Source of the DNA: a virus
Virus record (IMG/VR): IMGVR_UViG_3300028364_000026
Location: 24,630 to 88,629 of that record
DNA length: 64,000 nt
Direction: 5' to 3' (one strand)
Positions 1,997 through 62,555 of the stretch are shown here, piece after piece (position 1 is the first letter of the stretch; every line of letters begins with the position of its first letter). The position numbers and the translations under genes were made by a program. Under the pieces are notes generated by a model. That model saw only the letters and a program-made list of their open reading frames with translations. It had not been told where the DNA came from and did no database searches.

Positions 1997-2872
1997 TTAC
2001 TTGGCTACCAACTGAACCCTTTCACTTGGGTTATCTATATATTCTATCGCATCAACATTTTGTTTAACTGCCACTAACTGAACCGCTTCACTTGGATTCG
2101 TTATATGTGTTATCGCATAACCATTTTGTTTAACTGCCACTAACTGAACATCTTCTGGTAATTCACTTGGATTATCTATATGTTGTATCGCATGCCCATT
2201 TTGTGTCACTGCCACTAACTGAAGTTGTTCACTTGGATTCTGTATATATACTATCGCATGCCCATCTTGTTTAACTGCCTCCATCTTAACTTGTTCACTT
2301 GGGTTATCTATATATGCTATCGCAAGACCATTTTTTGTAACTGCTGCTAACTGAACCGCTTCACTTGGTGTTATATCATTTCCTATAATATGTCTTATTG
2401 CACCACCATTTTGTGTAACTGCCGCTAACTGAAGTTGTTCACTTGGATTCTGTATGAATTCTATCGCATAACCATCTTGCTTAACTGCTGCTAACTGAAC
2501 CGCTTCACTTGGGTTATCTATATATTGTATAACAAAACCATTTTCTGTAACTGCTGCTAACTGAACCGCTTCACTTGGATTCTTTACGTATTCTATCGCA
2601 CCACCATTTTCTGTAACTGCTGCTAACTGAACCGCTTCACTTGGGTTATCTATATATCGTATCAAATCACCATTTTCTGTAACTGCTGCTAACTGAACAT
2701 CTTCTGGTAATTCACCATAATAATATTTAATGTACTTTACATCTTGTTTAACACTAAGTTCCATTTTTCTTAAATAAGAGGTTTTATTATTATCATTTAA
2801 CTGATTAAATTGCTCTCTAGGAATTCCATTTCCAGTATTGATATACTGTTTAATTAAATCTTTATTGTTCAT
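1997..2872 (-). CDS. Repeat protein cassette E (constant head plus 10 DUF4116-like repeats)
   Basis: MNNKDLIKQYINTG head, then (VQLAAVxxNGxAIxYIxNPSE)n. Confidence 0.85.
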   Translation of the reverse strand: MNNKDLIKQYINTGNGIPREQFNQLNDNNKTSYLRKMELSVKQDVKYIKYYYGELPEDVQLAAVTENGDLIRYIDNPSEAVQLAAVTENGGAIEYVKNPSEAVQLAAVTENGFVIQYIDNPSEAVQLAAVKQDGYAIEFIQNPSEQLQLAAVTQNGGAIRHIIGNDITPSEAVQLAAVTKNGLAIAYIDNPSEQVKMEAVKQDGHAIVYIQNPSEQLQLVAVTQNGHAIQHIDNPSELPEDVQLVAVKQNGYAITHITNPSEAVQLVAVKQNVDAIEYIDNPSERVQLVAK

Positions 2873-2902
2873 AATTAATTTTTATTTTGATTTGCTAAAC
2901 TC

Positions 2903-3850
2903 TTAAGTAATTAAATAATTAAATTGTTCATCAGTTAATCTGTGACCCCTACCAATATATTTAGATTTAAAATCAAATGGTAATTTCATAAACCATTTTA
3001 AATCTCCATTACTTCGACCCAATAATTGTTCCTCTTCTTTTTCACTATCTGTTTTAGGTCTATTAACCATCTTATCAACTGGAACACCATTAGATTTTAA
3101 ATAACTAACATAACCATCAACATCTTTACGGTACTCAGAAATATTTCCAGTGTTATTGTCAGCATCAGTTAATTCAATCCCGTAACGTGTACTATCAAAT
3201 ACAACTATGTGTAATGGGTCATTTAAATCAACACCACCGTTAGAAGTTGTTTTAAATTTATTGGTATCAACAATGAAATAAAATGATGAATCTTTAGTAT
3301 CTCTATAACTATTATACATAGTATTACCAAATTGACCAATACAAAAACCATAGTTTCTTCCAGTCAAACCACCTTTAGTGTATTGAATACACTTTTGAAT
3401 AGAGTCACCATCATAAATGTCAATTCCGTTACCAGACCATAATTTTTTAGTCTCACTCTCAAACTTTTCAGTATCCCCAACTTCAGCCTTTTTAGCATAC
3501 TTACCTTCCTCACCATGAATAAACTCAGCTAACGAAATGTAATCGTTAAACTTATTATCACCTATAACTATTTGATTATTAACAATCTGCATAGGTTTAA
3601 CTCTATTCTTTAACAACAATTTATCAAAGATATTAAAATCACTTAATATTGTGTCAATATCTGTAAAACCATTAGCATAAACAAAAGCCATAATTGGCAC
3701 ACTTTTTTGATTTTTTGATTCATCACCACCAGCAAATTTTGCGATAATTTCATCAGCATTCTCAACATTTGCTTTTTTTAACACACCTAACCCTTGAAGC
3801 TCTGAAGATTTAGACTCCAGTAAAAAACTATATATTTCTAAAAGTCTCAT
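2903..3850 (-). CDS. Hypothetical protein with C-x(n)-[W/F]C domain
   Basis: KCIQY...YGFCIG...MYNSYR...FYFIVD; similar to domains in 50044, 55205 and 61278. Confidence 0.8.
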   Translation of the reverse strand: MRLLEIYSFLLESKSSELQGLGVLKKANVENADEIIAKFAGGDESKNQKSVPIMAFVYANGFTDIDTILSDFNIFDKLLLKNRVKPMQIVNNQIVIGDNKFNDYISLAEFIHGEEGKYAKKAEVGDTEKFESETKKLWSGNGIDIYDGDSIQKCIQYTKGGLTGRNYGFCIGQFGNTMYNSYRDTKDSSFYFIVDTNKFKTTSNGGVDLNDPLHIVVFDSTRYGIELTDADNNTGNISEYRKDVDGYVSYLKSNGVPVDKMVNRPKTDSEKEEEQLLGRSNGDLKWFMKLPFDFKSKYIGRGHRLTDEQFNYLIT

Positions 3851-3993
3851 TTTTTTTTATTTAATATTTATTATTTGTTATTATATAAATATACCCTATC
3901 ACCATTAAAGTTAACTATATAATTGCGAATTTTGGGTTTTTATAAATATAGAGTAACTTGGATGTTAATTCTGTTATTTTCCTAATAATTAGG

Positions 3994-4659
3994 TTATCTA
4001 TTCCCCATGACTAACAACTTAACTTGCTCACTTGGATTCTCTATATATGTTATTGCGTGACTATTTTGCGTAACCGCTGCTATCTGAACCGTTTCACTTG
4101 GATTCTTTATATAGTATATTAAATTACCATTTTCTTTAACTGCTAACATCTGAACTCGTTCACTTGGATTCTTTATATATTTTAACGCAAAAGCATCTTC
4201 TTTAACTGCTGCTAACTGAACCGATTCACTTGGATTCTTTATGTATTGTATCACACGACCATCATGTTTAACTGCTGCTATCTGAACCGCTTCACTTGGA
4301 TTCTTTATGTATTGTATCACATAACCATTTTTTGTAACTGCCACTAACTGAACCACCTCACTTGGATTCTTTAGATATTGTATCGCTTCACCATCTTGTT
4401 TAACTGCCTCCATCTGAACTTGTTCACTTGGGTTCGTTATATGTTTTATCGCATAACCATCTTGTTTAACTGCCGCTAACTGAACATCTTCTGGTAATTC
4501 ACCATAATAATATTTAATGTACCTTACATCTTGTTTAATACTAAGTTCCATTTTTCTTAAATAAGAGGTTTTATTATTATCATTTAACTGATTAAATTGC
4601 TCTCTAGGAATTCCATTTCCAGTATTTATATACTGCTTTATTAAATCTTTATTGTTCAT
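3994..4659 (-). CDS. Repeat protein cassette D (7 repeats)
   Basis: Same head and 22-aa repeat. Confidence 0.85.
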   Translation of the reverse strand: MNNKDLIKQYINTGNGIPREQFNQLNDNNKTSYLRKMELSIKQDVRYIKYYYGELPEDVQLAAVKQDGYAIKHITNPSEQVQMEAVKQDGEAIQYLKNPSEVVQLVAVTKNGYVIQYIKNPSEAVQIAAVKHDGRVIQYIKNPSESVQLAAVKEDAFALKYIKNPSERVQMLAVKENGNLIYYIKNPSETVQIAAVTQNSHAITYIENPSEQVKLLVMGNR

Positions 4660-5124
4660 GGTTTATTTATTTGCATTTGCTGCTCTCTGAACCGCTTCAC
4701 TTGGTGTAATACCTTTTTTTGTTATATATCTTATCGCACGACCATCATGTTTAACTGCTGCTAACTGAACTTGTTCACTTGGCGTAATACCTTTTTCTAT
4801 TATCTGTGCTATCACAAAACCATTTTGTTTAACTGCTGCTAACTGAACCGCCTCACTTGGATTATTTATATAGTATATCGCACCACCATATTGTTTAACT
4901 GCTGCTAACTGAACTGCTTCACTTGGATTCTTTATGAATTCTATCACATTACCATCATGTTTAACTGCTGCTATCTGAACCGCTTCACTTGGATTCTTTA
5001 TGTATTGTATCACATAACCATTTTTTGTAACTGCCACTAACTGAACCACCTCACTTGGATTCTTTAGATATTGTATCGCTTCACCATCTTGTTTAACTGC
5101 CTCCATCTGAACTTGTTCACTTGG
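4258..5124. repeat. 174-bp identical direct repeat shared by cassettes D (4258-4431) and C (4951-5124)
   Basis: Base-by-base comparison by eye. Confidence 0.85.
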
Positions 5125-5550
5125 ATTATATATATATGTTATCGCACGACCATTTTGTTTAACTGCTTCTAACTGAACTACTTCACTTGGATTATGTATA
5201 TAGTGTATCGCACGACCATTTTGTTTAACTGCTTCTAACTGAACTACTTCACTTGGATTATGTATATAGGATATCGCATTACCATTTTGTGTAACTGCTG
5301 CTAACTGAACCGCTTCACTTGGATTCTTTATATAGGATATCGCATTACCATTTTGTGTAACTGCTGCTAACTGAACATCTTCTGGTAATTCACCATAATA
5401 ATATTCAATATAACTTGAATCTTGTTTAATACTAAGTTCCATTTTTCTTAAATAAGAGGTTTTATTATTATCATTTAACTGATTAAATTGCTCTCTAGGA
5501 ATTCCATTTCCAGTATTTATATACTGTTTTATTAAATCTTTATTGTTCAT
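4663..5550 (-). CDS. Repeat protein cassette C (10 repeats)
   Basis: Same head and 22-aa repeat. Confidence 0.85.
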   Translation of the reverse strand: MNNKDLIKQYINTGNGIPREQFNQLNDNNKTSYLRKMELSIKQDSSYIEYYYGELPEDVQLAAVTQNGNAISYIKNPSEAVQLAAVTQNGNAISYIHNPSEVVQLEAVKQNGRAIHYIHNPSEVVQLEAVKQNGRAITYIYNPSEQVQMEAVKQDGEAIQYLKNPSEVVQLVAVTKNGYVIQYIKNPSEAVQIAAVKHDGNVIEFIKNPSEAVQLAAVKQYGGAIYYINNPSEAVQLAAVKQNGFVIAQIIEKGITPSEQVQLAAVKHDGRAIRYITKKGITPSEAVQRAANANK

Positions 5551-5552
5551 AA

Positions 5553-6035
5553 TTAATTTTTATTTTGATTTGCTGCTAACCTAACCACCTCACTTGGTGT
5601 AATACCTTTTTTTACTATATGTTCTATCGCATCACCAGTTTGTGTAACTGCTGCTAACTGTACTTGTTCACTTGGATTCTCTATATAGTATATCGCATGC
5701 CCATCTTGTTTAACTGCCTCCATCTTAACTTGTTCACTTGGGTTATCTATATATGCTATCGCACCACCATCTTGTGTAACTGCCGCTAACTGAACCGCTT
5801 CACTTGGATTCTTTATATAGGATATCGCATTACCATTTTGTGTAACTGCTGCTAACTGAACATCTTCTGGTAATTCACCATAATAATATTTAATGTACCT
5901 TACATCTTGTTTAACACTAAGTTCCATTTTTCTTAAATAAGAGGTTTTATTATTATCATTTAACTGATTAAATTGCTCTCCAGGAATTCCATTTCCAGTA
6001 TTTATATACTGTTTAATTAAATCTTTATTGTTCAT
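5553..6035 (-). CDS. Repeat protein cassette B (4 repeats)
   Basis: Same head and 22-aa repeat. Confidence 0.85.
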   Translation of the reverse strand: MNNKDLIKQYINTGNGIPGEQFNQLNDNNKTSYLRKMELSVKQDVRYIKYYYGELPEDVQLAAVTQNGNAISYIKNPSEAVQLAAVTQDGGAIAYIDNPSEQVKMEAVKQDGHAIYYIENPSEQVQLAAVTQTGDAIEHIVKKGITPSEVVRLAANQNKN

Positions 6036-6037
6036 AA

Positions 6038-6730
6038 TTAATTTTTATTTTGATTTGCTGCTAACCTAACCACCTCACTTGGTGTTATATCATTTCCTAT
6101 AATATGTCTTATTGCACCACCATTTTGTGTAACTGCTGCTAACTGAACTTGTTCACTTGGCGTAATACCTTTTTCTATTATATGTACTATCGCATAACCA
6201 TTTTGTTTAACTGCTACTAACTGAAGCGATTCACTTGGATTCTGTATGAATTCTATCGCATAACCATCTTGTGTGACTGCCACTAACTGAAGCGATTTAC
6301 TTGGGTTATCTATATATTGTATAACAAAACCATTTTCTGTAACTGCTGCTAACTGAACCGCTTCACTTGGATTCTGTATGAATTCTATCGCACCACCATT
6401 TTCTGTAACTGCTGCTAACTGAACCGCTTCACTTGGGTTATCTATATATCGTATCGCACCACCATTTTGTTTAACTGCCACTAACTGAACTTGTTCACTT
6501 GGATTCTCTATATATTGTATCGCCCAACCATCTTGTGTAACTGCCGCTAACTGAACATCTTCTGGTAATTCACCATAATAATATTTAATGTACCTTGTAT
6601 CTTGTTTAATACTAAGTTCCATTTTTCTTAAATAAGAGGTTTTATTATTATCATTTAACCGATTAAATTGCTCTATGGGAATTCCATTTCCAGTATTTAT
6701 GTATTGTTTAATTAAATCTTTATTGTTCAT
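6038..6730 (-). CDS. Repeat protein cassette A (7 repeats)
   Basis: Same head and 22-aa repeat; ATATTTATA box at 6753-6761 upstream. Confidence 0.85.
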   Translation of the reverse strand: MNNKDLIKQYINTGNGIPIEQFNRLNDNNKTSYLRKMELSIKQDTRYIKYYYGELPEDVQLAAVTQDGWAIQYIENPSEQVQLVAVKQNGGAIRYIDNPSEAVQLAAVTENGGAIEFIQNPSEAVQLAAVTENGFVIQYIDNPSKSLQLVAVTQDGYAIEFIQNPSESLQLVAVKQNGYAIVHIIEKGITPSEQVQLAAVTQNGGAIRHIIGNDITPSEVVRLAANQNKN

Positions 6731-7891: not shown

Positions 7892-9619
7892 ATGACAAAA
7901 AGAAGTGTATCCACAGCAACAACGAAAACAACTGTAGCTAAAACTAAAAAAAATAAAATAGAAGATAATGGAGAAGGTTTTGAATCGAAAGCTAATCTTT
8001 TATCTCAAATAAAGTTAGTTTTAAAACACAAAAACGAGAACCAAAAAAAACTAACTCAATCAATTAAAGATAACGATGTTACAATATGTACTGGTTCAGC
8101 TGGTACTGGTAAAGCACAACCACTTGATTCATTAATTTTAACACCAAACGGGTATGTAACCATGGGTAGTATAAAATTAGGTGATAATGTTATTGGTGTC
8201 AACGGCAACCCGATAAAGGTTGATGGGGTTTACCCTAAAGGTGAAAAAGAAATTTATATTATTACTTTTTCAGACGGAACATCAACGGAATGTTGTGGAG
8301 AACATTTATGGTTTACACAAACAGATTTAGATAGAAAGAAAGTAACATTAGGTGATGAAACTAATAAATATGGTTCTGTTAAAAACACAATCGAAATAAT
8401 GAATAGTCTGCTTGTTGGTGATGATTTAGCAAAATTAAACCACACTATACCAATTGTTAAACCAATCAATTTTATAAAAAAACAAGTAGTGTTAGAACCT
8501 TATTCACTTGGGTGTTTATTAAGCAATATTGATTATAGAGTTAACACTATACCTGACTCCTCAGATAATAACGCTATACCAGAAGAATACTTAATTAATG
8601 ACGTAAATACCAGAATAGAACTGTTACAAGGGTTATTAGATACAGAAGGTTCAGTCGATGAAAGTTCTGGGACCCCAGTGTTTTATTCTATTTCCGAAAA
8701 ATTAATTGAAAATGTTATGTTTTTAATTCAATCACTAGGTGGAACAGCGATTAAAACAAAAGAAATTAATGATATTTATAAATTAAATATTAATTTACCA
8801 TCTGACATAGTTCCCTTTAAATCAGAAACTAAAATACGTTTATTAAAACAAAAAAATAAAAATCATCCTATTAGATATATTAAAAACATTGAACTAAAAG
8901 GTAATAAAGAGGTTCAATGTATTTCAGTTGATGATAGTAATCATTTATATTTGACAAACGATTGTATTGTAACACACAACACTTATTTGTCATGTCTTCA
9001 ATCCCTTTTAGAAATAAAAAGCGATAACAAAATAAATAAAATAGTTTTAGTTAAATCAGTCACAACATTAAAAACAGAAGAAATTGGTTTTTTAAAAGGT
9101 TCGATGGAGGAAAAAATGGAACCATTCATGTATTCGTTTACTGGTAATTTCGAAAAACTAATTGGTGGTGGTTTATTTAAAAAACTAAAAGAAAATCAAA
9201 CTATTCAAATATTACCAATAGCTTATCTTAGAGGTGTAAACATTGACAATGCGGTAGTTATTATTGACGAAGCTCAAAATATTAGTATTGATAACATAAG
9301 AACTATTTTAACTAGGTTAGGTGAAAACAGTAAAATGGTTTTTTTAGGTGACACTAAACAAATAGATGTTAAGAATAAATATGATAGTGCTTTAGGTTTT
9401 TTAATTGAAAATTTTAAAACAATAAATAATATTGGGATTGTAGAATTCACTAAAGAAGATATAATAAGACATAAGTTAATCAAAGTCATTGAGGACGTAT
9501 TTGATAAATTAGAAGAAGAAAAAAAAATAAAAAACACTATAAGACCAAAAATCGCTCATAAACAAATTATAGTAAAACCAAAAAATACTATATTAGAACG
9601 CATTAAGAATTTATTTTAA
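7892..9619 (+). CDS. phoH: PhoH-family ATPase with intein
   Basis: GSAGTGK|T Walker A split by the intein; IGFLKG, YLRG, IIDEAQN, TRLGENSK, GDTKQID. Confidence 0.92.
   Translation: MTKRSVSTATTKTTVAKTKKNKIEDNGEGFESKANLLSQIKLVLKHKNENQKKLTQSIKDNDVTICTGSAGTGKAQPLDSLILTPNGYVTMGSIKLGDNVIGVNGNPIKVDGVYPKGEKEIYIITFSDGTSTECCGEHLWFTQTDLDRKKVTLGDETNKYGSVKNTIEIMNSLLVGDDLAKLNHTIPIVKPINFIKKQVVLEPYSLGCLLSNIDYRVNTIPDSSDNNAIPEEYLINDVNTRIELLQGLLDTEGSVDESSGTPVFYSISEKLIENVMFLIQSLGGTAIKTKEINDIYKLNINLPSDIVPFKSETKIRLLKQKNKNHPIRYIKNIELKGNKEVQCISVDDSNHLYLTNDCIVTHNTYLSCLQSLLEIKSDNKINKIVLVKSVTTLKTEEIGFLKGSMEEKMEPFMYSFTGNFEKLIGGGLFKKLKENQTIQILPIAYLRGVNIDNAVVIIDEAQNISIDNIRTILTRLGENSKMVFLGDTKQIDVKNKYDSALGFLIENFKTINNIGIVEFTKEDIIRHKLIKVIEDVFDKLEEEKKIKNTIRPKIAHKQIIVKPKNTILERIKNLF
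8114..8980 (+). mobile_element. Class 3 intein (Ala1, 289 aa) with degenerate LAGLIDADG
   Basis: AQPLDSLILTPNG start; W-C-T signature (EHLW, VQCI, VTHN); Thr+1; LQGLLDTEG. Confidence 0.88.
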
Positions 9620-27880: not shown

Positions 27881-30800
27881 TTATTCTAATAATTTATTTA
27901 TATCATCAATCATAGTATTAACTGATTTGTTTATTTTTACTGATTTATCGTAAATCTTAACCCTTTCATTTTTTAAAGTGTTATCCTCAGTTTTAATAGA
28001 TTCTACCAATACATCAACCCATTTATTTTGATATTTTTTAGTTTTTTGAACCATTTTATTATTTAATTCAACTCTTTTATTAGTTAATAATTTATCTACT
28101 CTAACTAAATTTTCTGTCAAATTAGCTGGTTCCGCTTCTTCAACAGAACCTAAATCTTCTCCACCTAAATCTTCTCCACCTAAATCTTCACCACCAGTTT
28201 CTAAACTGTCGTCTCCACCTTCAGTTTCTCCATCACCAAAGTCTAAATCTTCACCACCAGAACCTCCACCTCCAAATGAAGCACCTCCTCCACCCCCAAA
28301 TGAAGCACCTCCTCCAGAAGCATCTCCACCCTCTTCACCTTCAGATGGGTTACCACCTTCTAGTGCGGCTTTAAAATCACCATATATTCTATCTACAGTA
28401 TCAAACATACCAGTATGTTTAATAACACTTGAGGTGTTAGCTAATTCAGCTGAAGCAGCTTTTTCCATTCTTTGTTCAAGTAAATCAGATTTTATTTCAT
28501 CATTAGACCAACCCAGTATTTCTCTATGAGCACGTGTCCAAGACATAACAGCAAAACCATTTCCAATATCAGCAACAGCATCTTTAACCAACGTAACTTT
28601 TTGTTGTAGGTGCTCAACCTTAAGCATTTCAGCTTGGGTTGATGGGTTATTTAACGTTAATGTAAAATTATCTAAGTCCTCATCAAAACCTAATAAATAT
28701 AGATGTATAATCGCTATTTTATTTAATTCTTGCAACATAGATTGTTGAATACGGTTAATCGTTCTAGAAAATCGGATATCTTGTATCGCTAAATTCTTTC
28801 CATCACCAGCAGCTTCTTCAAAACCTAAAAATGGTTTTGGTACTCTTAGGGCTGTAAATAAATTTCTTTGAAGGTACTCTATATCAGAAATCTGGTCTAA
28901 ATTACTGTTTTTCAAGTAGTTACCAGCTTCTGTTGCAAATGTATGATAATTATGGTATAATTCATCACCATCAACAGTTATTGTTCCAGTATCTATTTTA
29001 ATGGATGACCATTCAATAATACTTACTTTACGTATATTATCTTCTGTGTCATTAACACTATCATTGTTAAATGTCATCAATGAATCACCAACGACTAAAT
29101 CTTTAGCTTCAACAAAACCTTTAGTTTTATGCACCCATTTATGGTCGGGTGTTGTTGTAATTGACTGACCATTATCTAAGGTTACTTTCATAACTTCAGT
29201 ATTCATTCTAGTTTCACCAGCCCAAGTAATAATACCTGAAGCTAAAGCACCTGTATTAGGGTCACAAGAGTGTACCCACATATCTTTATTACCATTGTTC
29301 CATTCTGAAATAATTTCATTAAGTTCTAGTGTTCTACCATCTAATAATGGAATCCGAGTATCTAAAGCGATACAAGCACCAGGCAAAGTATCAATCGGGT
29401 TAGGAGCATCTTCTGTTCTTACTGGTATAAAATAATCTTGGTCGTTACTTAATTGATGATGTTTTAAATCTATTTGACCAGTCTGTGGGTCAACAATAGG
29501 CATACGTTTAAATCTATCCGCTATTGAGTTTACGTAACTTTCTACATCGGCTTCATCAATGTTACCAACATAAATTTTATAAACACGTCTTTCTGGTGCT
29601 CTAGTAACTCTATAAACCAACATTGCATCTTCAGAAAGAATTAATTGTTTCCAAATACGTCTTGCTTTCTCTAAAATAGAATTGTGGACAACGATACCAT
29701 TTGCATAGAAATTATGGTTATCATTTTCAACATATATATCGTATGTTTCGTGTTCACCACTTTCCTCAATTGATTTAATCGGTTCTAAAATAAAATCATT
29801 AGTTAACCTATTATCAACAACTAATAAATCACCTAATTTAAAATCTAGCGTATTTTTATAATCGAATTTATTTAATTCGGTATCATAATACATTATTTTA
29901 TGTTCTTTAGATGCGTCTATAAAATTATGTTCGGTGCTGAGTTTATAAGTTTTTTTATTACCAGAATTAACAGTATCCAATACTTTTGACAATACTTTCA
30001 CTTGATTAATTACATCAAATGAATAAACCATATCACCAATAACAATATCTTTTATCTCCTTATACCCCTCACTTGTCTCAACGCTAGAATCATATTTTAA
30101 ACACGTACCGTAAGGCAAACGTCTATCATCCCCTAATAAACGGAAATGAGCTATTTGCCATGAATTAAATTCTATATCACTTCCTCTCCAATAAAATTTG
30201 ACTTTATCTACAGTTGAGTTTTCTGTATTAGCTGAGCCAGTGACCATTTCAAATAAACCAACTTCTCTACGTTCCATCTCATAATTAGGTAATTGCTTAC
30301 CACCAACAACCCCTTGTTTTTCATCAATATTTAAAAAAACAAAATTATCACCATACTTACAATTTGATAAAAACACACCAGAATTTATTGAGTATGAACC
30401 ATTTAAATCTTTACCACAAATTGGGAAATTATGTCTATCGTGTTCTCCATTAGGCCCAACAGCTTCTAGACAATACACATTTGAAGTTTCAGCTAACTTA
30501 ATTACCGAAACGACTTTATGGTTAATTACTTTTTTTATTAAATTTATATCTTCGGCATTAAACGACATAAGTGATTCACCCACAACTAAACTATCAGCTC
30601 TTTTAAATGAACCATCCATAACCATATATTCATGGTCTGGTGTCGTATCAATATATGTTTCATCTTCTAGCGTTACACGATATAATTCACTATCTTCTCT
30701 GGTTAAATCACACCATATGATTTTACTAGGTACGATAACTTGGGTCTCATCCTGAATAGCGAAAGACCAAATTTCCTCACCTAATTTAACCCTAACAGAT

Positions 30801-31330
30801 AAGTCTTTTATAGTTGTTTCTGTCCCATCCAATAAAGGGATTATAGAATCTTCTCTAATTGGAGTATTTCTAACCCACATAGGTAATGACGTATGTAAAT
30901 CTAACCTATTAAAAAACAAATCTTCAAGTATACCCTTTACTCTATTACTATCAGAATAAATATTTAACACCCTACCATTATCGTTAACTGTAGTAGATTC
31001 TTCCATCATTACATCTAATGCGGCTGCGATTGTTGGGTAAAACTCCATTGCTTCAAAATCCGAATATGAGCCAATACGAGTTGTTTCATAATTCATAGAT
31101 TGCTGAAATAAGCCACTCTCAACTTTTTTCCACATCCCACCCAAATATTTATTTTGTTGAGCTTGTAGTTTTGCTCTCTCAAAGTCAGCTTTATTATCTG
31201 TTTTTAATATTTCGGTATTACCACCTAAATTATATCTTTGAGTTGGTTGTTTTTGGGTTAATCTATTTGATTCTGGACCAACAATTTGACCTAATCTTTG
31301 AAAAATTGTTAATTTATTGGTATTTGCCAT
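27881..31330 (-). CDS. Portal protein (T4 gp20-like) with three inteins; about 685 aa after splicing
   Basis: CKYGD, EDAMLVYRVTRAPERRVYKI, QDYFIP, IDTLPGA, ALRVPK, DIRFSRTI. Confidence 0.92.
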   Translation of the reverse strand: MANTNKLTIFQRLGQIVGPESNRLTQKQPTQRYNLGGNTEILKTDNKADFERAKLQAQQNKYLGGMWKKVESGLFQQSMNYETTRIGSYSDFEAMEFYPTIAAALDVMMEESTTVNDNGRVLNIYSDSNRVKGILEDLFFNRLDLHTSLPMWVRNTPIREDSIIPLLDGTETTIKDLSVRVKLGEEIWSFAIQDETQVIVPSKIIWCDLTREDSELYRVTLEDETYIDTTPDHEYMVMDGSFKRADSLVVGESLMSFNAEDINLIKKVINHKVVSVIKLAETSNVYCLEAVGPNGEHDRHNFPICGKDLNGSYSINSGVFLSNCKYGDNFVFLNIDEKQGVVGGKQLPNYEMERREVGLFEMVTGSANTENSTVDKVKFYWRGSDIEFNSWQIAHFRLLGDDRRLPYGTCLKYDSSVETSEGYKEIKDIVIGDMVYSFDVINQVKVLSKVLDTVNSGNKKTYKLSTEHNFIDASKEHKIMYYDTELNKFDYKNTLDFKLGDLLVVDNRLTNDFILEPIKSIEESGEHETYDIYVENDNHNFYANGIVVHNSILEKARRIWKQLILSEDAMLVYRVTRAPERRVYKIYVGNIDEADVESYVNSIADRFKRMPIVDPQTGQIDLKHHQLSNDQDYFIPVRTEDAPNPIDTLPGACIALDTRIPLLDGRTLELNEIISEWNNGNKDMWVHSCDPNTGALASGIITWAGETRMNTEVMKVTLDNGQSITTTPDHKWVHKTKGFVEAKDLVVGDSLMTFNNDSVNDTEDNIRKVSIIEWSSIKIDTGTITVDGDELYHNYHTFATEAGNYLKNSNLDQISDIEYLQRNLFTALRVPKPFLGFEEAAGDGKNLAIQDIRFSRTINRIQQSMLQELNKIAIIHLYLLGFDEDLDNFTLTLNNPSTQAEMLKVEHLQQKVTLVKDAVADIGNGFAVMSWTRAHREILGWSNDEIKSDLLEQRMEKAASAELANTSSVIKHTGMFDTVDRIYGDFKAALEGGNPSEGEEGGDASGGGASFGGGGGASFGGGGSGGEDLDFGDGETEGGDDSLETGGEDLGGEDLGGEDLGSVEEAEPANLTENLVRVDKLLTNKRVELNNKMVQKTKKYQNKWVDVLVESIKTEDNTLKNERVKIYDKSVKINKSVNTMIDDINKLLE
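28907..29374 (-). mobile_element. Portal intein 3 (156-aa mini-intein), ends KN
   Basis: CIALDTRI...TTPDHKW...HTFATEAGNYLKN|S; removal gives TLPGA|SNL. Confidence 0.88.
29681..30103 (-). mobile_element. Portal intein 2 (141-aa mini-intein)
   Basis: CLKYDSSV...ASKEH...TYDIYV...HNFYANGIVVHN|S. Confidence 0.92.
30362..30862 (-). mobile_element. Portal intein 1 (167 aa), Pro1, block F Cys, ends SN; Cys+1
   Basis: PIREDSIIPLLDG aligns with CIALDTRIPLLDG of intein 3; TTPDHEY; VYCLE; removal gives WVRNT|CKYGD. Confidence 0.8.
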
Positions 31331-31379: not shown

Positions 31380-34300
31380 TTATTTTCTACGTCCAAATAA
31401 CCAACCATATTGACCATTTGGGTCTCTTGGGTTTTTAAAGGTTTCTTTAGGTTTTGAGTATATTTTAGAATCAATAGGTCTAGAGTCTACTCTTTCATTT
31501 ACTATTGGTTTATTCGAACCACCATTCAACCAAGAACTTAACATTGCTTTGTTTTGTTTCTCCAATCTTTCAAGACTCTTAAATGAATGTTCAGCAACCC
31601 ATAAAGCCATAGCAATGGCCATGATTAAATCATCGTGAGCACCTTCTTGGTGGTCTGGGCGACCATTTTTGTAAATAAAGGTATTCAGTTCGGTAATCAT
31701 TCTAGCCGAACGAATTTTTATAGTATTGGTCCTAATACTATATTCTAAGTTTGATATCATAGGTAAACGCACACTTGTTGCATGAAATCCTGGGATTTTA
31801 TTATCAGAACTACCACTTACAAGTTCTCTTTGTCTAGCTGAAAGTATTTTACCGTTTGAATTGTCGTAATGTAACAATTTATATTCGAATTCAAGTAACT
31901 TTAATACAGTTGAAACACCCATACCACCAGTAACATCGACTACTGTATATGCTTTATACTTTGAACCATATTCCTCAACTATTTGTGCCAGTAAATCAGG
32001 TTGTATTTTACCTTGATACTCCATAACTTCTTCCATTACAGTAATATCAATAATAACTACAGTAGATTCATCGGCACCATCACCTCTACTTACATCACAA
32101 TTATGTGTTGTTATATGGTGACACATAAAAGTGTTAGTTTCACATTCAAAATTATAAACATCCCCAGTAAACTTAGACTTGTTTATGTTGTTAACTTTAA
32201 AATAAATATAATCTTTATTGTCATCAAAATGACAAGAGTTAATGGTTTGTTTATTATTTGAGTTAAAATCATTAAAATTTAATTCATTTAATTCAGTATC
32301 ATCAGTTTTATAAATTAGTTTTATTAAATCTAAACTGTCATGACTAGCTAAAGTTAAATCATAGCTTTCTGTCCCCCCCAATTTACCTAAAGATGAAACA
32401 ACCCCCAATGAAAATATAATATCTTGTACTGACTCTAATAATTCTAAATTTACACCAACAAAACTCAGTTTTAGGTATTGTTTAGTTTTACTCAAACATC
32501 CATTACTATCAAAGTAACCTCTAATTAATTCTTTTTTGTTTTCATCAGAGATAAACTTAACCCACTCTGATATTTTATTGTCATTTGAATTTTGACCAAA
32601 GTTTTCTAATATAAAATAATATAAAAATTTATAATTAAATTCTATTGTTTTGTTATTATGGCTAAATAATGGTGAACAGTTAAATAATCGGGTTATAATA
32701 TTTTTATATTTTTCGACATAACCTTTTTGGGTTTTATCAAAATTTAGTGATATTGAATGGGAATCTTTAGTTAACGAACCATTACCTAACCACATACCAA
32801 TAAACCACCAAAAATCGTTATCGAGTAATGGTGAATCGATATTACAAGGTACATCATTAGTTACTACCCATTTATCTTCATAAGTGGAATTAATTGATTT
32901 TTTGTAGGTGTTAGGGACTTTTACCCAATCACCTACTTCAACCTCTTCTACCCTTGTATAATTGAAATCTAAATCTAAATTACTTTTACTAATTAAAATT
33001 GGGTGTTCCTTGGTGAATGTTGTTGTTCTAAACGTACTATCCATTTGTATTTCAAATATATCCTCATCAATTACAGGATAAATTTGTCTATTAATTATAT
33101 TTACGTAATTACCATCTTCACTTACTAACTTATCGTTAATGTCAACATCTTTAATATTTACTAACCCTTTATCAGTTAATACTTTTTCGTATGGGGTTAA
33201 ACACCCCAATATATATTGGTGTCCTTCAATAGGTTCAGCCCATACCCATATTTCCTTATTTGCACCAAAAGTTGCAATTGGTTCTTTTACGTTATTCTTT
33301 TCCTGAAACAAAATAAATTCTTCTGCAATAACGTTACCTCCAGAACCAATGAACGACACATCAAGTTCTTGTGCAATCATTTTTGCGTCATTATTCATAC
33401 CCATACACATACCTTCATACCAAGTAGAAGTAGCTTTCCAACCATCATCTAAACGAAGTTTATAAGATTCAAAAGTGAATTCATACTCGCTTTCTACAAT
33501 ATCGTCTTTTAACCAACGTAAGTCTTTATTATAACGCAAATCTTCATGCCATTTCATTTCAACAATATTGAAATTATTTTTCTTATATTTTGCTTGGTCG
33601 TAAGTTTTATAATATAAAGAATCCATACCATTTGGTGTTTGATGACCTAATATACCATTATAAATAACGGAATGACACCAAAAATCATTAGTTTCAGGTA
33701 ATGAAACATCATATGTTTTATTTTTAAGTTTTTCTAATTTAGTTATTGGAACCCATTTTGAATCTTTAAAATTAATTTTATCAATTGAATATCTGGATAA
33801 ATCAAGATTTAAAACATTAATAAAATAATCTATAAATTCATTAAAAATATTTACTGATAAATTAGCTGTTTTGTTTTTATTATAAATTCTAATTTTATTA
33901 ACTAGTAAACCAGTGTTAGGTAATTTTCTAACTAATTTATGTTCGTTTATGATATTTCTAATTATATTTTTACCGTTTGGTATTATTCTATTATTATAGG
34001 ATACTAATTTATTTTGTCCTCTTTTTATTTGTTTCCTATTAAATCTAAAACCAATGGTGTCGTAATATTTATCCGCATCAATAGATGTTGATGAAATCTT
34101 ATAATATTGACTACTAACTTTAACTTTTTTAGTTGGTAGTGTTATTCCTTCTGAATAATCAGTTAATATACCAAGATTTAAAAATAAAAACCTTATTTGT
34201 TGAATTAATTTTTTAGAGGACAAATTTATACCTATCGTACCTCTAATATTATCAGAATAACCATCACCATCCATAATACCTTGTAACATAGCAATAATAT

Positions 34301-36734
34301 TTTCACGCCCCATTTCAAGTAAACGTTTAGGTATTAACTTATTTGGGGCTTTTAAGGTTAAATTAAACCCCAAATACTCTAATAAACCACCTAAATATTT
34401 AGATGAAATTTTATAGTGTAAATTATCGTGTGATGAATAATTAAACCCAGCATTAGATATGTATGTGCCAACATTATCACCACATGTTATCGTAATATCA
34501 CAACCATAAATATTTTTTGGTTCATAACTAGACCCTTCTGATAAATATAAACCAATTAGATAAGCTAAATCAGTATTTATTTTATCATAAATTATTTTTG
34601 GTTTATCTTCTGTATTTGAAAACTCATAGGTAAAATCAATGGTATCGTTATTACCAAAAATATTAAACGAATGTTGTACATTAACATAATCACCGATTTC
34701 TAATTCACTAACCGTAAACCAATCATATTTGTTTTTTTTATTTGAATAAGACCACAATTTATGTGTTTCAGTTGACTCAAGTTCTGAATTATTAGTTGTT
34801 AATTTTATAGTTTCTTGAAAACCATTATTAACAATTAAATTTGATTTCCTAGATACATTATTTCCTCTAATATTATATTCTTTAACATAATAACCTAAAT
34901 TAGGTATATCTGGTTCATCATAATTAATAATGTCTTTCATTTGTTGTAAACCATTGTCAGTAAAAATAAAAGTATCTTCAGTAACACAGGATATAAGTGT
35001 CGCTCTACCCCCAGTATTATGACTTATAATACCGTTTGAAATAAATGAATTTGTTTCTGGTACATGTAAATCATAAGTATAATCTTCTGACTCAGTTATA
35101 GAAATAATTTCATCGATATAAAACATTTTTTCATTACTTACATTAACAAATCTTGCGTTTTTTTTCTTATTTAATAAAAATTCTTTATTATTTTGTTTTC
35201 TATCTAATCTGAAACCAATTTCGTCATAAAATTTAATTGCATTATTTGAATAAATTTTTAAGTTGTAAATTTTACAAATATTTTTTTTATTTTTTATTAT
35301 TGATGATTTAGAAGTTTTTTCTTTTTCATATTTAATATGTGATATAATACCAAAATTAAATAATAAAGTTTGTAGTGTTTGAATTAATTTTTTGGATGTG
35401 CTTGAATATTTAATATCCTTTACAGTACTCACCCCATCACCATCGAATATACCTTGTAAAAACACTTTAATGACATCTTTAGGCATCTTTAATAAAGCTA
35501 AAGGTATTTCCTTATCCCTAGCATTATTTTTCGCCAACCCAAACATTTTAAACCATTCTATTAACTCAGTTGAGTTAAATTGATAATGACGGTCATCAAC
35601 TTTTTTAAATGCGTTACCTAAACAAGCTTTATCTGTTAATAGAAAATTTGTTATGTAATCGTCAATATTTGTGATGGTAATACCACTTGAATTAAAATTA
35701 CCCTGAGCTAAGAATAATCCTAATAAATAAGAAAAATCTAAATTATCACCAAGGTTTTTAGGTATTGTGATGTTTTCACCATTTTTGTGTTTATCGAAAA
35801 CAAAATTTACTTCGCTATTATTACTAAAATAATTTTGACCATATTGAATTATTGGTTTGTCACCAATTTTTAATTCGTTCATCCGTACCCAATTCTCAAC
35901 TCCATGGTTATCAATTAAAATAGGATGTTTCCAACTGCCCTCTAATTCAACACCTAATTTAGTTTTAATTTTAAATGTTTGACCATATTCACTAACAAAA
36001 GTTTGAGTTGCGTTAACAATATCACCATCTTTATTACAAACTTTATGTGGTAACTCCAAATCGGTAAAACCTATTTTATCTTTTTCAGAAACTAATTCAT
36101 CAAGTTGAATTAAACCATTTTCAGTTAAAATTAACGAATCTTTTGTTAAACAACCTAGTGCAGTAAGTGCAGCACCAAAAACTTCCGCTCCGTTATCAAT
36201 ATAAGCGGCCTCATCCATAATAAGGGTTGTTGGGGTAAAACCACGAAGTGCATCCTTAGAAGTTGCTACGGCCTTTACTCTACTATTATTTGGTAATCTA
36301 ATTTCTTTTTTGGCGTTAACAATAAAAATTGTTTTAGCTTCATTCTCTGGAGAACCATAATATTCGTCTCCCCAAACCCATCTTGGTAATTGAGATAGAA
36401 AATCTTTAATTTTTGCCAAGAATTCAAAAGCTAAATCTTGTTTATTCGCAATAATAAGAATATTCTCAGGGTTATTACCGTCAGCTAAGGCTACGATAAT
36501 AGCCATATATGCAGCGGTGGTTGTAGATACACCAGCTTGTCTAGGTTTTGTTACTATATTAAATCTATGGTTTTGATAAGCGGTTATGATTTCTTTTTGT
36601 CTAGGAAATAGAACAAATGGTACAAAACCTTCTTGTGTTTTATCAAAAGTAGTTAAATATGTTTCAATAGCATATGTTGGGTCTTGCAAACACATAGCAT
36701 ATTCATATAAAATTTCCGTTGTTGTCAGATTCAT
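31380..36734 (-). CDS. Terminase large subunit (T4 gp17-like) with three inteins; about 587 aa after splicing
   Basis: KPRQAGVST, LIMDEAAY, IS|TPNG, G|CDVSRGDG, HDDLIMA. Start 36734 preferred because a late box lies at 36746-36754. Confidence 0.93.
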   Translation of the reverse strand: MNLTTTEILYEYAMCLQDPTYAIETYLTTFDKTQEGFVPFVLFPRQKEIITAYQNHRFNIVTKPRQAGVSTTTAAYMAIIVALADGNNPENILIIANKQDLAFEFLAKIKDFLSQLPRWVWGDEYYGSPENEAKTIFIVNAKKEIRLPNNSRVKAVATSKDALRGFTPTTLIMDEAAYIDNGAEVFGAALTALGCLTKDSLILTENGLIQLDELVSEKDKIGFTDLELPHKVCNKDGDIVNATQTFVSEYGQTFKIKTKLGVELEGSWKHPILIDNHGVENWVRMNELKIGDKPIIQYGQNYFSNNSEVNFVFDKHKNGENITIPKNLGDNLDFSYLLGLFLAQGNFNSSGITITNIDDYITNFLLTDKACLGNAFKKVDDRHYQFNSTELIEWFKMFGLAKNNARDKEIPLALLKMPKDVIKVFLQGIFDGDGVSTVKDIKYSSTSKKLIQTLQTLLFNFGIISHIKYEKEKTSKSSIIKNKKNICKIYNLKIYSNNAIKFYDEIGFRLDRKQNNKEFLLNKKKNARFVNVSNEKMFYIDEIISITESEDYTYDLHVPETNSFISNGIISHNTGGRATLISCVTEDTFIFTDNGLQQMKDIINYDEPDIPNLGYYVKEYNIRGNNVSRKSNLIVNNGFQETIKLTTNNSELESTETHKLWSYSNKKNKYDWFTVSELEIGDYVNVQHSFNIFGNNDTIDFTYEFSNTEDKPKIIYDKINTDLAYLIGLYLSEGSSYEPKNIYGCDITITCGDNVGTYISNAGFNYSSHDNLHYKISSKYLGGLLEYLGFNLTLKAPNKLIPKRLLEMGRENIIAMLQGIMDGDGYSDNIRGTIGINLSSKKLIQQIRFLFLNLGILTDYSEGITLPTKKVKVSSQYYKISSTSIDADKYYDTIGFRFNRKQIKRGQNKLVSYNNRIIPNGKNIIRNIINEHKLVRKLPNTGLLVNKIRIYNKNKTANLSVNIFNEFIDYFINVLNLDLSRYSIDKINFKDSKWVPITKLEKLKNKTYDVSLPETNDFWCHSVIYNGILGHQTPNGMDSLYYKTYDQAKYKKNNFNIVEMKWHEDLRYNKDLRWLKDDIVESEYEFTFESYKLRLDDGWKATSTWYEGMCMGMNNDAKMIAQELDVSFIGSGGNVIAEEFILFQEKNNVKEPIATFGANKEIWVWAEPIEGHQYILGCLTPYEKVLTDKGLVNIKDVDINDKLVSEDGNYVNIINRQIYPVIDEDIFEIQMDSTFRTTTFTKEHPILISKSNLDLDFNYTRVEEVEVGDWVKVPNTYKKSINSTYEDKWVVTNDVPCNIDSPLLDNDFWWFIGMWLGNGSLTKDSHSISLNFDKTQKGYVEKYKNIITRLFNCSPLFSHNNKTIEFNYKFLYYFILENFGQNSNDNKISEWVKFISDENKKELIRGYFDSNGCLSKTKQYLKLSFVGVNLELLESVQDIIFSLGVVSSLGKLGGTESYDLTLASHDSLDLIKLIYKTDDTELNELNFNDFNSNNKQTINSCHFDDNKDYIYFKVNNINKSKFTGDVYNFECETNTFMCHHITTHNCDVSRGDGADESTVVIIDITVMEEVMEYQGKIQPDLLAQIVEEYGSKYKAYTVVDVTGGMGVSTVLKLLEFEYKLLHYDNSNGKILSARQRELVSGSSDNKIPGFHATSVRLPMISNLEYSIRTNTIKIRSARMITELNTFIYKNGRPDHQEGAHDDLIMAIAMALWVAEHSFKSLERLEKQNKAMLSSWLNGGSNKPIVNERVDSRPIDSKIYSKPKETFKNPRDPNGQYGWLFGRRK
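32100..33203 (-). mobile_element. TerL intein 3 (368 aa) with LAGLIDADG-like endonuclease
   Basis: CLTPYEKV...FIGMWLGNG...IRGYFDSNG...HITTHN|C. Confidence 0.9.
33639..34988 (-). mobile_element. TerL intein 2 (450 aa) with LAGLIDADG endonuclease, C-terminal Gln
   Basis: CVTEDTFI...LIGLYLSEG...LQGIMDGDG...NGILGHQ|T. Confidence 0.9.
35016..36152 (-). mobile_element. TerL intein 1 (379 aa) with LAGLIDADG endonuclease
   Basis: CLTKDSLI...LLGLFLAQG...LQGIFDGDG...NGIISHN|T. Confidence 0.92.
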
Positions 36735-36808
36735 ATTCTTTTTAATATAAATATGTGACAACAACGGAAACTCTATTATTGGTTATTTTAGACTAAACTA
36801 AAAAAAAA

Positions 36809-61277: not shown

Positions 61278-62555
61278 CTATCTTTTTATTAATCGTTCAA
61301 ACAAACTTCTATTATAAACCAAATTCTTTACCACATCAATGTCAACTTGTCCACTAGTTCCATCACCCATTCCAATATTTATTGGCTTTTCAGCGTTAAA
61401 TGCATCAATAAAATTAATAGTTAACTTTTTACCTTGGTCTATATCATACTCCTGCCCAAGACTTAACTTAGCTTGCTCCAAATCATTCAACGCTTTCATG
61501 TAAATATCAAAACCACTACCCTCAATCTCATAACCAATTTCTTTCAAATGCGATAATATCTTATTAACCATATAACTATTGGTGCTATCCAATAAAGACT
61601 CAACATCATACTTTAAAATATTATCTGGGTCCGTCTCTAATATGTACCCATTAACAATAACATCCTCATCAACATCAGACCCCCGCATAGCAGCTAAACA
61701 ATTTTTGAATTCTTTGCTCTCTGGTAAACCTTTTGCCGTATACAAAGCATCATTAAATGTTTCACTATATCCACCATTAACATATTCGTCAATACCATTA
61801 TCTAAAATGAAATCGTAAAACTTAAGCCCAAGCCTTTTTTCAAAAAAATAATAAAGGTCACTACCTTCATCATCATAAAACAAGTTATCAGCAGTAACGT
61901 CTCTGTCTTCAGCATCAGTTAATTGTTTGGATTCAATATGCATCTGAAATTTATCACCACTCCCCTTATTAATAATAACAAATAAAGGACCATCAGAATT
62001 ATAACTGTTAAACATGTTTCTTGACTCCTCAGCAGCCGTACACCACTGCGTCCCTTTCCCAATCATACAAGATGCTCGCTCAGTCTTTGGAATCATAACT
62101 AACCATTGCTCATCATTGAAAATTTTATCGATTTCGGTGTCCTTTATCTTGCGAATCTCCGATTTTTTACTAGTGGGAATAGTATCCTCATTACCCTCAA
62201 AATCCTTCACAACAGAATATAACTCTTGTAAACTCTTAATTGAATTAATATCACGACTATCTGATGGTATCACATTCTTAAACTTCTCAAATAATGCCAA
62301 ATAATCAGATACCTTGTAAAAATCTTCAGTCTTTAAAAGACCCTTTCCCAATAAATTGTAAATCCACATAAAATAATTTCTGTTATGCTGATTATTCTTT
62401 TTTGGATATAAACCCTCAATCGCATCATATAAACTTACATCACCCTTTAATATAGGAAATTTTTCCTTATTAGAGTAAAATTTATCCCAAGCATCAGAAG
62501 AACTAATCTCAACCATTAATTCTTCCCTAAGTAATCGCCTTATATTATTAAACAT
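61278..62555 (-). CDS. WC-domain protein with IRRLLRE tag
   Basis: ASCMIGKGTQWCTAA...GPLFVIINK...KFQMH. Confidence 0.75.
   Translation of the reverse strand: MFNNIRRLLREELMVEISSSDAWDKFYSNKEKFPILKGDVSLYDAIEGLYPKKNNQHNRNYFMWIYNLLGKGLLKTEDFYKVSDYLALFEKFKNVIPSDSRDINSIKSLQELYSVVKDFEGNEDTIPTSKKSEIRKIKDTEIDKIFNDEQWLVMIPKTERASCMIGKGTQWCTAAEESRNMFNSYNSDGPLFVIINKGSGDKFQMHIESKQLTDAEDRDVTADNLFYDDEGSDLYYFFEKRLGLKFYDFILDNGIDEYVNGGYSETFNDALYTAKGLPESKEFKNCLAAMRGSDVDEDVIVNGYILETDPDNILKYDVESLLDSTNSYMVNKILSHLKEIGYEIEGSGFDIYMKALNDLEQAKLSLGQEYDIDQGKKLTINFIDAFNAEKPINIGMGDGTSGQVDIDVVKNLVYNRSLFERLIKR

Follow-up and report, generated by a model that had tools for sequence, protein, structure and literature searches.

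Gene fission at a self-complementing helical junction has probably given an uncultured lake phage one core protein and five plug-in DUF4116 partners

Our analysis of a 64,000-nt stretch of viral DNA (hereafter the window) suggests that gene fission at a self-complementing helical junction probably gave rise to one core protein with five plug-in DUF4116 partners, the plugging-in being a prediction from structure modelling. We consider it rather likely that the 315-aa protein encoded at 2903..3850 is the N-terminal part of a modular protein family, that in this phage it is split from and reassembles with five exchangeable solenoids, and, more tentatively, that it works as an enzyme through Cys170. 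The observations within this explanation are homology, architecture, synteny and two recurrent cut points. A full-length chain of the family consists of the core, a conserved motif (motif 1), a helical head of ~45 residues and a variable repeat domain, which may be of the ankyrin, LRR or DUF4116 kind, a series of iterated head-like units, or of unknown kind. In the window phage the break falls behind motif 1 and ahead of the head: the core is made alone, and five neighbouring genes each encode the head first and then a DUF4116 alpha-solenoid. The pieces would reassemble non-covalently, the head sitting against motif 1 and against the surface near residues 155-174, and through such non-covalent docking one core could carry any of the five solenoids. 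The solenoids would then be exchangeable binding or targeting subunits, and the core an enzyme using the invariant Cys170 together with R183, D195, D229, N232 and E270.

The features of the locus are the following:

1997..2872, minus strand: cassette E, 291 aa, head (residues 1-45) and DUF4116 repeats, directly downstream of the core
2873..2902, minus strand: spacer of 30 nt from the core stop to the ATG of cassette E, containing a relic of a cassette 3′ end
2903..3850, minus strand: core ('hub') gene, a 315-aa ORF with no Pfam, PHROG, NCBIfam or PADLOC family
2909..2977, minus strand: motif 1, core residues 292-314, helix-loop-helix KSKYIGRGHRLTDEQFNYL, predicted to be the surface for docking and better conserved than any other stretch of the family
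3341..3343, minus strand: codon of Cys170 (FCIGQ), which alone among the residues never varies across the representatives
3851..3993, minus strand: AT-rich intergenic stretch of 143 nt, upstream of the core gene
3994..4659, minus strand: cassette D, 221 aa, head and DUF4116 repeats
4663..5550, minus strand: cassette C, 295 aa, head and DUF4116 repeats
5553..6035, minus strand: cassette B, 160 aa, head and DUF4116 repeats, ends ..ANQNKN, the partner in the complex prediction
6038..6730, minus strand: cassette A, 230 aa, head and DUF4116 repeats, ends ..ANQNKN

Read along the minus strand, the order is A, B, C, D, the 143-nt gap, the core, the 30-nt spacer and E, and every cassette has its own ATG. 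The core protein ends in ...SKYIGRGHRLTDEQFNYLIT, two residues beyond motif 1, and all five cassettes start with MNNKDLIKQYINTGNGIP.EQFN.LNDNNKTSYLRKMELS. A profile search of the window's contig found one core and five heads, with no further copies. According to the available text of one study, the DUF4116 family has been modelled as an alpha-solenoid (PMC8078820). All five cassettes are members of this family (PF13475), with 39.4-94.3 bits against the curated gathering cut-off of 24.9; cassette E scored 82.3 bits, and the head profile found it with an E-value of 2.6e-16. The Pfam model covers the repeat only, without the conserved head or any link to a core protein, and a Pfam search of the core protein itself gave no DUF4116 match. 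A scan for promoters and terminators found sites no more numerous than in shuffled sequences, including in the upstream stretch 3851..3993.

The window belongs to a viral record of 88.6 kb with 29.7% G+C and an estimated completeness of 25%, and it carries T4-like head, portal and terminase genes. The source virus is an uncultured giant lake phage, and the core family is an unclassified one from uncultured large phages. The stretch was found in metagenome runs from lake water and salt lakes, of which two contain 80% of the words sampled; none of the 12 runs listed is an RNA run. Next to the core gene come an ORF resembling dUTPase (a name taken from its translation rather than from any family search), an HD hydrolase and PhoH, with no tail genes adjoining; a baseplate-hub-like gene lies ~12 kb from the core gene, and the head and portal genes 18-25 kb from it. 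Three ORFs in the window are far longer than usual and have PHROG matches split by a large insert: a PhoH-like ORF (7892-9619, plus strand, 575 aa), a portal ORF (27881-31330, minus strand, 1149 aa) and a large-terminase ORF (31380-36764, minus strand, 1794 aa). This suggests that the inserts are inteins or other insertions. A further ORF of 425 aa (61278-62555, minus strand) weakly matches phrog_17056 with residues 129-207 (E 2.8e-8), a family that is also matched by the DUF4116 cassettes; it has no head, and the head profile finds the five cassettes only.

The original prediction had proposed that an ancestral domain-plus-solenoid protein was split, and relatives with both halves in one chain do exist. 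Searches of metagenomes yielded 333 core homologs similar to it in length, with 53-97% identity and 96-100% coverage among the 120 listed, and an exhaustive search at E ≤ 1e-3 gave 337 core representatives; the window's core belongs to this family by similarity over its full length, including the invariant Cys and motif 1. The best 150 of the 337 representatives, taken at 50% identity, were classified using a head profile that was itself partly derived from fused proteins later classified with it:

fused, head detected: 78
fused, head undetected: 6
stop directly behind motif 1: 20
stop past motif 1, half-way through the head: 12
truncated or unclear: 34

Single-chain fusions account for 84 of these 150 representatives and split proteins for 32, each of which ends at either of two fixed positions. 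The fused members have 450-1282 aa, and the core comes first in the chain. Past motif 1, 88 fused proteins read ..LL.QYV.TG..L..YQ..K.....LK..YLR.R.., that is, the cassette head. Pfam searches of 36 long members found ankyrin repeats in ten, DUF4116 in two, LRR in one, another family in one and no family in 22. The two DUF4116 fusions, which carry these repeats behind the motif, align with the window's cassettes from the head onward, P0150 with cassette E (residues 329-619, E 2e-51) and P0121 with cassette B (residues 321-508, E 2e-30); over their N-terminal parts the two are 44% and 54% identical to the core, respectively. From such single chains it follows that the cassettes correspond to the C-terminal half of a fused protein. 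In the fused members (P0121 and P0150 with DUF4116, P0152 and P0159 with ankyrin, P0127 and L014 with LRR repeats) the core, motif 1 and head are homologous over their full length to those of the window, and the repeat body stands behind the head in the same order. The difference is that they are one chain, whereas the window phage has it cut behind motif 1 and the head-plus-repeat half in five copies.

Split and fused forms interleave in a FastTree phylogeny of 132 representatives. The state of stopping after the motif changes up to seven times on the tree, with at least two of the changes forced by well-supported branches, and the smallest well-supported clade that includes the window's core contains six fused, four split and three unclassed rows. 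As the tree is unrooted and gives no direction between the two states, the existence of fused homologs bears out one part of the proposed history, but the claim that the fused protein was the ancestral one is not supported.

Relatives were also sought in sequenced genomes. Neither the core nor that of a distant member found a relative by tblastn among 50,697 deposited phage genomes; a third query matched them only through its C-terminal repeats, and no DNA match for the core was found in these genomes. Queried as a single protein, the core had no close relative among viral contigs, and metagenome contigs gave two distant ones; the relatives nearest to it are P0001 and P0002. Searches of 185,579 prokaryote genomes gave two loci, one of them weak. 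The sole clear relative there (L027) has 55% identity, is cut by the contig end and lies on a 7.3-kb contig titled Gammaproteobacteria bacterium; this location could be a hint of the host or phage carry-over. Literature searches on DUF4116, PcfJ, PBECR4 and ankyrin, LRR or jumbo phages brought up no account of the core family or its split.

The arrangement of the split genes was examined in viral contigs, where a profile scan identified 26 core loci. Only one of them is fused, with LRR repeats, and in 18 of the 25 split loci a partner starts exactly at the point where the core stops. In 15 of the 26 loci the core ends behind motif 1 (cut 1) and is accompanied by one to six genes on the same strand that start with the head at residue 1-3. 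These partners mostly abut the core, with a gap of -1 to 10 nt, and in one locus (L013) lie 4.4 kb away. The window's core belongs to this first type, with its end at motif 1 and the head-first cassette E 30 nt downstream. In the other ten loci (L016-L025) the core retains the first half of the head, ..LL.QYLDTG.PIPE.QFN.L.. (cut 2). In the six of these ten loci whose neighbours were read (L016-L021), the abutting genes open with the head's second half, MDKAQK.LIDTYYRKRAIAA, as recognized by profile in L017, L019 and L020 and by eye in L016, L018 and L021. Examples are L017:3190-6996 and L021:6049-8193. There are two independent fission sites within one junction module. The head matches themselves are found close to the core gene: in five viral records, two of which are 100% complete (288 and 321 kb), 15 of the 16 head matches lie within 6 kb of it, and the 16th lies at the opposite end of a record that has terminal repeats.

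That the 315-aa protein ends in a motif resembling the cassette head was confirmed from the ORF, by BLASTP and by the head profile, the end as originally given having left off two residues. In the BLASTP comparison, core residues 293-313 align with head residues 5-25 of cassette E, with 9 of 21 positions identical and an E-value of 0.016 that refers to a single comparison, a weak pairwise similarity. The profile, built from heads without the motif, had its best match on the C-terminal motif in all 125 stand-alone cores, and its per-sequence E-value was below 0.01 in 107 of the 125 vs 7 of 125 shuffled copies, so that the motif similarity is significant. The heads are also better conserved than what follows them: between loci, identity is 53% in heads vs 28% in bodies, and within loci 60-97% vs 24-71%, the five heads of the window being 97% identical. 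In three loci the partner bodies (L015:1290-5939, L029:5109-5933 and L004:6941-7361) are not DUF4116 but iterated units similar to the head and motif 1, ..G..I...QFELLTPEQRFQYAMK.., which makes motif 1 and the head themselves appear to be units of a distinct repeat family.

Structure prediction provided a candidate mode of association. In the AlphaFold model of the core (pLDDT 89.1), an N-terminal helical part (1-118) is followed by an alpha/beta core (138-240) and a C-terminal helical part (244-315), in which motif 1 forms helices 292-300 and 307-314; across 132 representatives, conservation of its residues Y298, I299, R301, G302, L305, Q309 and F310 is 86-98%. A prediction of the complex of the core with cassette B gave a score of 0.61 (runs 0.61, 0.64 and 0.58), while the best of three controls scored 0.00; the mark applied is reached by 116 of 157 solved complexes and by 2 of 215 mismatched pairs, counts that are rough since own alignments were used. 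The runs had at least 87% of their contacts in common, with a partner pLDDT of at least 87. The predicted interface joins core residues 155-174 and 292-314 with partner residues 1-24 and 39-43, i.e., motif and head as the original prediction would have it, and the segment 155-174, which contacts the partner's head in the model, adjoins the invariant Cys170. Because there is no solved complex for the core family, the pass is unlikely to reflect a structure memorized by the predictor. The head is predicted to dock on the core's motif 1. With fused homologs, a predicted interaction and a significant motif similarity all found, each of the three conditions that would have refuted the original prediction turned out in its favour.

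We also looked for covariation between motif and head. In the planned test on 102 motif-head pairs, the 25 closest predicted contacts were not enriched (median rank 629 of 1275 column pairs vs 637.5 expected, p 0.48), in a test that is low-powered as most contact columns barely vary. Eight of the 15 strongest covarying motif-head pairs lie on the predicted interface vs 3.5 expected (hypergeometric p 0.010), an enrichment that is post hoc, picked once the data had been seen.

The core was described at first as followed by the same linker that is found after cassettes A and B. An exact 26-nt string, GCAAATCAAAATAAAAATTAATTATG, does occur three times in the window, and exactly three (2870-2895, 5548-5573 and 6033-6058, all on the minus strand), whereas none of 100 shuffled sequences had a match, but the name linker does not fit it. 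Its first 21 nt encode the end of cassettes A and B (..A N Q N K N stop), with TT and the next ATG coming after them; behind the core gene the string lies beyond the stop and is without one GCA. Being coding in A and B and non-coding behind the core, it is a relic of a cassette 3′ end. As far as can be read from the sequence, the relic in the 30-nt spacer marks the arrival of cassette E, or of its junction, through recombination inside the array; the spacer is a recombination relic without a role of its own, not a functional element. A sister strain, represented by contigs from two salt-lake metagenome runs (X4 and X6), provides a further view of the array. It is ~98% identical across the core gene, with 17 of 1036 positions different, and in its spacer 2 nt are missing at 2879 and there are three substitutions within 30 nt. 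The upstream flank of its core joins an A-like cassette body in place of D, through a joint from 3882 to 6356 with 153 other letters between (window 2847-3882 and 6356-6478). The comparison was made on contigs, and the long ones cover only parts of the array. From the different upstream cassette it follows that cassette arrays vary between close strains. The relic, the 97% identical heads and the sister-strain joint point to ordinary recombination among the cassettes.

Residue conservation of the core in the 132 representatives was as follows:

C170: 100% (132/132)
R183: 99%
E270: 99%
Y182: 98%
N232: 98%
Q309: 98%
D195: 96%
D229: 95%
C154: 78%
H214: 52%

The protein was first described under the name Cys-domain; Cys170 is invariant, Cys154 is kept in 78%, and no Cys-domain family matched. 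The core has no family in Pfam, PHROGs, PADLOC or NCBIfam, the structure searches gave no fold match beyond weak rows, and a profile search against PDB sequences returned chance rows only (E ≥ 0.31). We tentatively propose, as the most likely function, that the core is a Cys-dependent enzyme brought to its targets by the solenoids, a reading drawn from residue conservation; its main alternative is an anchor in the virion. A papain-like cysteine peptidase with a conserved Cys-His pair is not supported: the only His nearby, H214, is kept in 52% of the 132 representatives. Structure searches with the whole model and with the core domain listed no chain of papain-like fold; a single viral 'AvrRpt2' row appeared in the Foldseek search of viral models (E 0.053, TM 0.11).

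In the same kind of search PcfJ-like viral models gave weak rows (E 0.01-0.2, TM 0.21-0.26), and by language-model features of core residues 128-290, PcfJ clusters made up 26 of the 30 named matches (score 0.92). Profiles did not confirm an assignment to PcfJ (PF14284): there was no Pfam match in the core, nor in 56 family members at E ≤ 1, the profile found nothing in six frames of the window's contig at E ≤ 10, and profile-profile comparison (hhalign) with 26 PcfJ proteins gave a probability of 0.1. None of the structure-search rows for the core was a solved PcfJ structure. PBECR4 (PF18813), to which a language-model row (0.90) was the sole lead, was not confirmed either, with nothing found in the contig at E ≤ 10. 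A true PcfJ-domain protein of 486 aa (L031; PF14284, E 8e-18), distinct from the core family, is encoded in the 321-kb viral record of L007, ~10 kb from that record's own core gene.

How the core and its cassettes relate at present can be explained in other ways. The core might act alone after the split and the cassettes be free-standing binders, with the likeness of motif and head a matter of common descent. This would be in line with the weak pairwise similarity (9/21, E 0.016), with the negative outcome of the planned covariation test and with docking being a prediction, yet we think it unlikely: motif 1 and the head remain the best-conserved parts in the split forms, at two different cut points the partner begins exactly where the core ends, head genes occur only beside the core in the complete genomes searched, split and fused states alternate among close relatives, and the complex prediction passed its controls. 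The single chain might instead be restored in the cell, by recombination between the core tail and a head, as the original prediction suggested, or by translation that continues past the two in-frame TAA. Cassette E was correctly seen to be in frame with the core behind two TAA (the junction reads TAA GAG TTT AGC AAA TCA AAA TAA AAA TTA ATT ATG), the 97% identical heads would let cassettes recombine with one another, and sister-strain contigs do carry a different cassette upstream of the core. Nevertheless, such re-fusion is highly improbable in our judgement. The longest exact DNA match of the core tail with a head is 9 nt, and none of the five contig joints listed in four metagenome runs links the core to a head. 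The frame relation carries no meaning, as just 6 of the 14 junctions between core and partner in related loci keep the frame, near the one third expected, and the 2-nt loss in the sister strain's spacer breaks it; also, each cassette has its own ATG.

The virion anchor accepts that the pieces dock, but takes the core to be a non-enzymatic, virion-bound protein and the repeat proteins to be exchangeable surface binders. Some phages hang several tailspikes on one adaptor, and the one-to-many docking layout here, a conserved N-terminal plug with variable bodies, would resemble this. A weak Foldseek match to a 'structural protein' of Pseudomonas phage PA5oct (E 3.6e-3, TM 0.22) and the distances of ~12 kb to the baseplate-hub-like gene and 18-25 kb to the head and portal genes are in its favour too. 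We nonetheless give it a small chance, as neither the core nor the cassettes have a PHROG structural family, the neighbours are the dUTPase-like ORF, the HD hydrolase and PhoH rather than tail genes, and an invariant Cys together with several charged residues, set in a compact alpha/beta core, is more suggestive of an active site than of an anchor. Furthermore, ankyrin and LRR domains, which form the bodies of some members, are usually intracellular binders. We favour the reading of a split core that reassembles with its solenoids. A bolder version of it is a hub-and-receptor machine, in which a Cys-dependent enzyme with a fold unseen in solved structures would be aimed at different host proteins by a small set of plug-in alpha-solenoid receptors, and the cut at the self-complementing helical junction would let the library grow by cassette duplication and recombination; it would be a bacterial-virus counterpart of the F-box receptor families, possibly directed against host defence. 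This version is speculative and somewhat doubtful.

SCF ubiquitin ligases combine a constant core with many F-box receptors, in which a short helical docking module is followed by variable repeats. The layout is shared with the core and its cassettes by analogy only. F-box was rejected as an assignment, with no match among the Pfam families of the five cassettes (E ≤ 0.01) or of 38 partner proteins (E ≤ 0.001). Unlike in SCF, the host here is bacterial, there is no sign of ubiquitin-like chemistry and no match to a ligase family, and docked and fused states would alternate in the evolution of the core family. Rhs and CDI polymorphic toxins carry orphan cassettes downstream of the main gene, and an array of alternative cassettes beside a main gene, with recombination scars at the junctions, is found here too, but the variable parts here would be binders and not toxin tips. 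An orphan array of the Rhs/CDI type, in which cassettes have no start of their own and have junction DNA in common with the main gene, so that tips can be swapped by recombination, was rejected, given the cassettes' own ATGs, the core-head match of no more than 9 nt and the lack of a fusing joint in the four runs.

For annotation, the locus carries a caution, in that an exact 26-nt 'linker' was no more than coding sequence from the end of a neighbouring cassette, where recombination had left it. A core family with hundreds of members and no match in any library searched now has an architecture, two natural cut points and a predicted interface. If the docking is true, motif 1 and the head would be a compact natural split-protein pair, a 23-residue hairpin against a 45-residue head. 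It would also show a phage multiplying binding specificities around a single core, and would give the DUF4116 arrays of phages a first functional context, as receptors of a partner protein.
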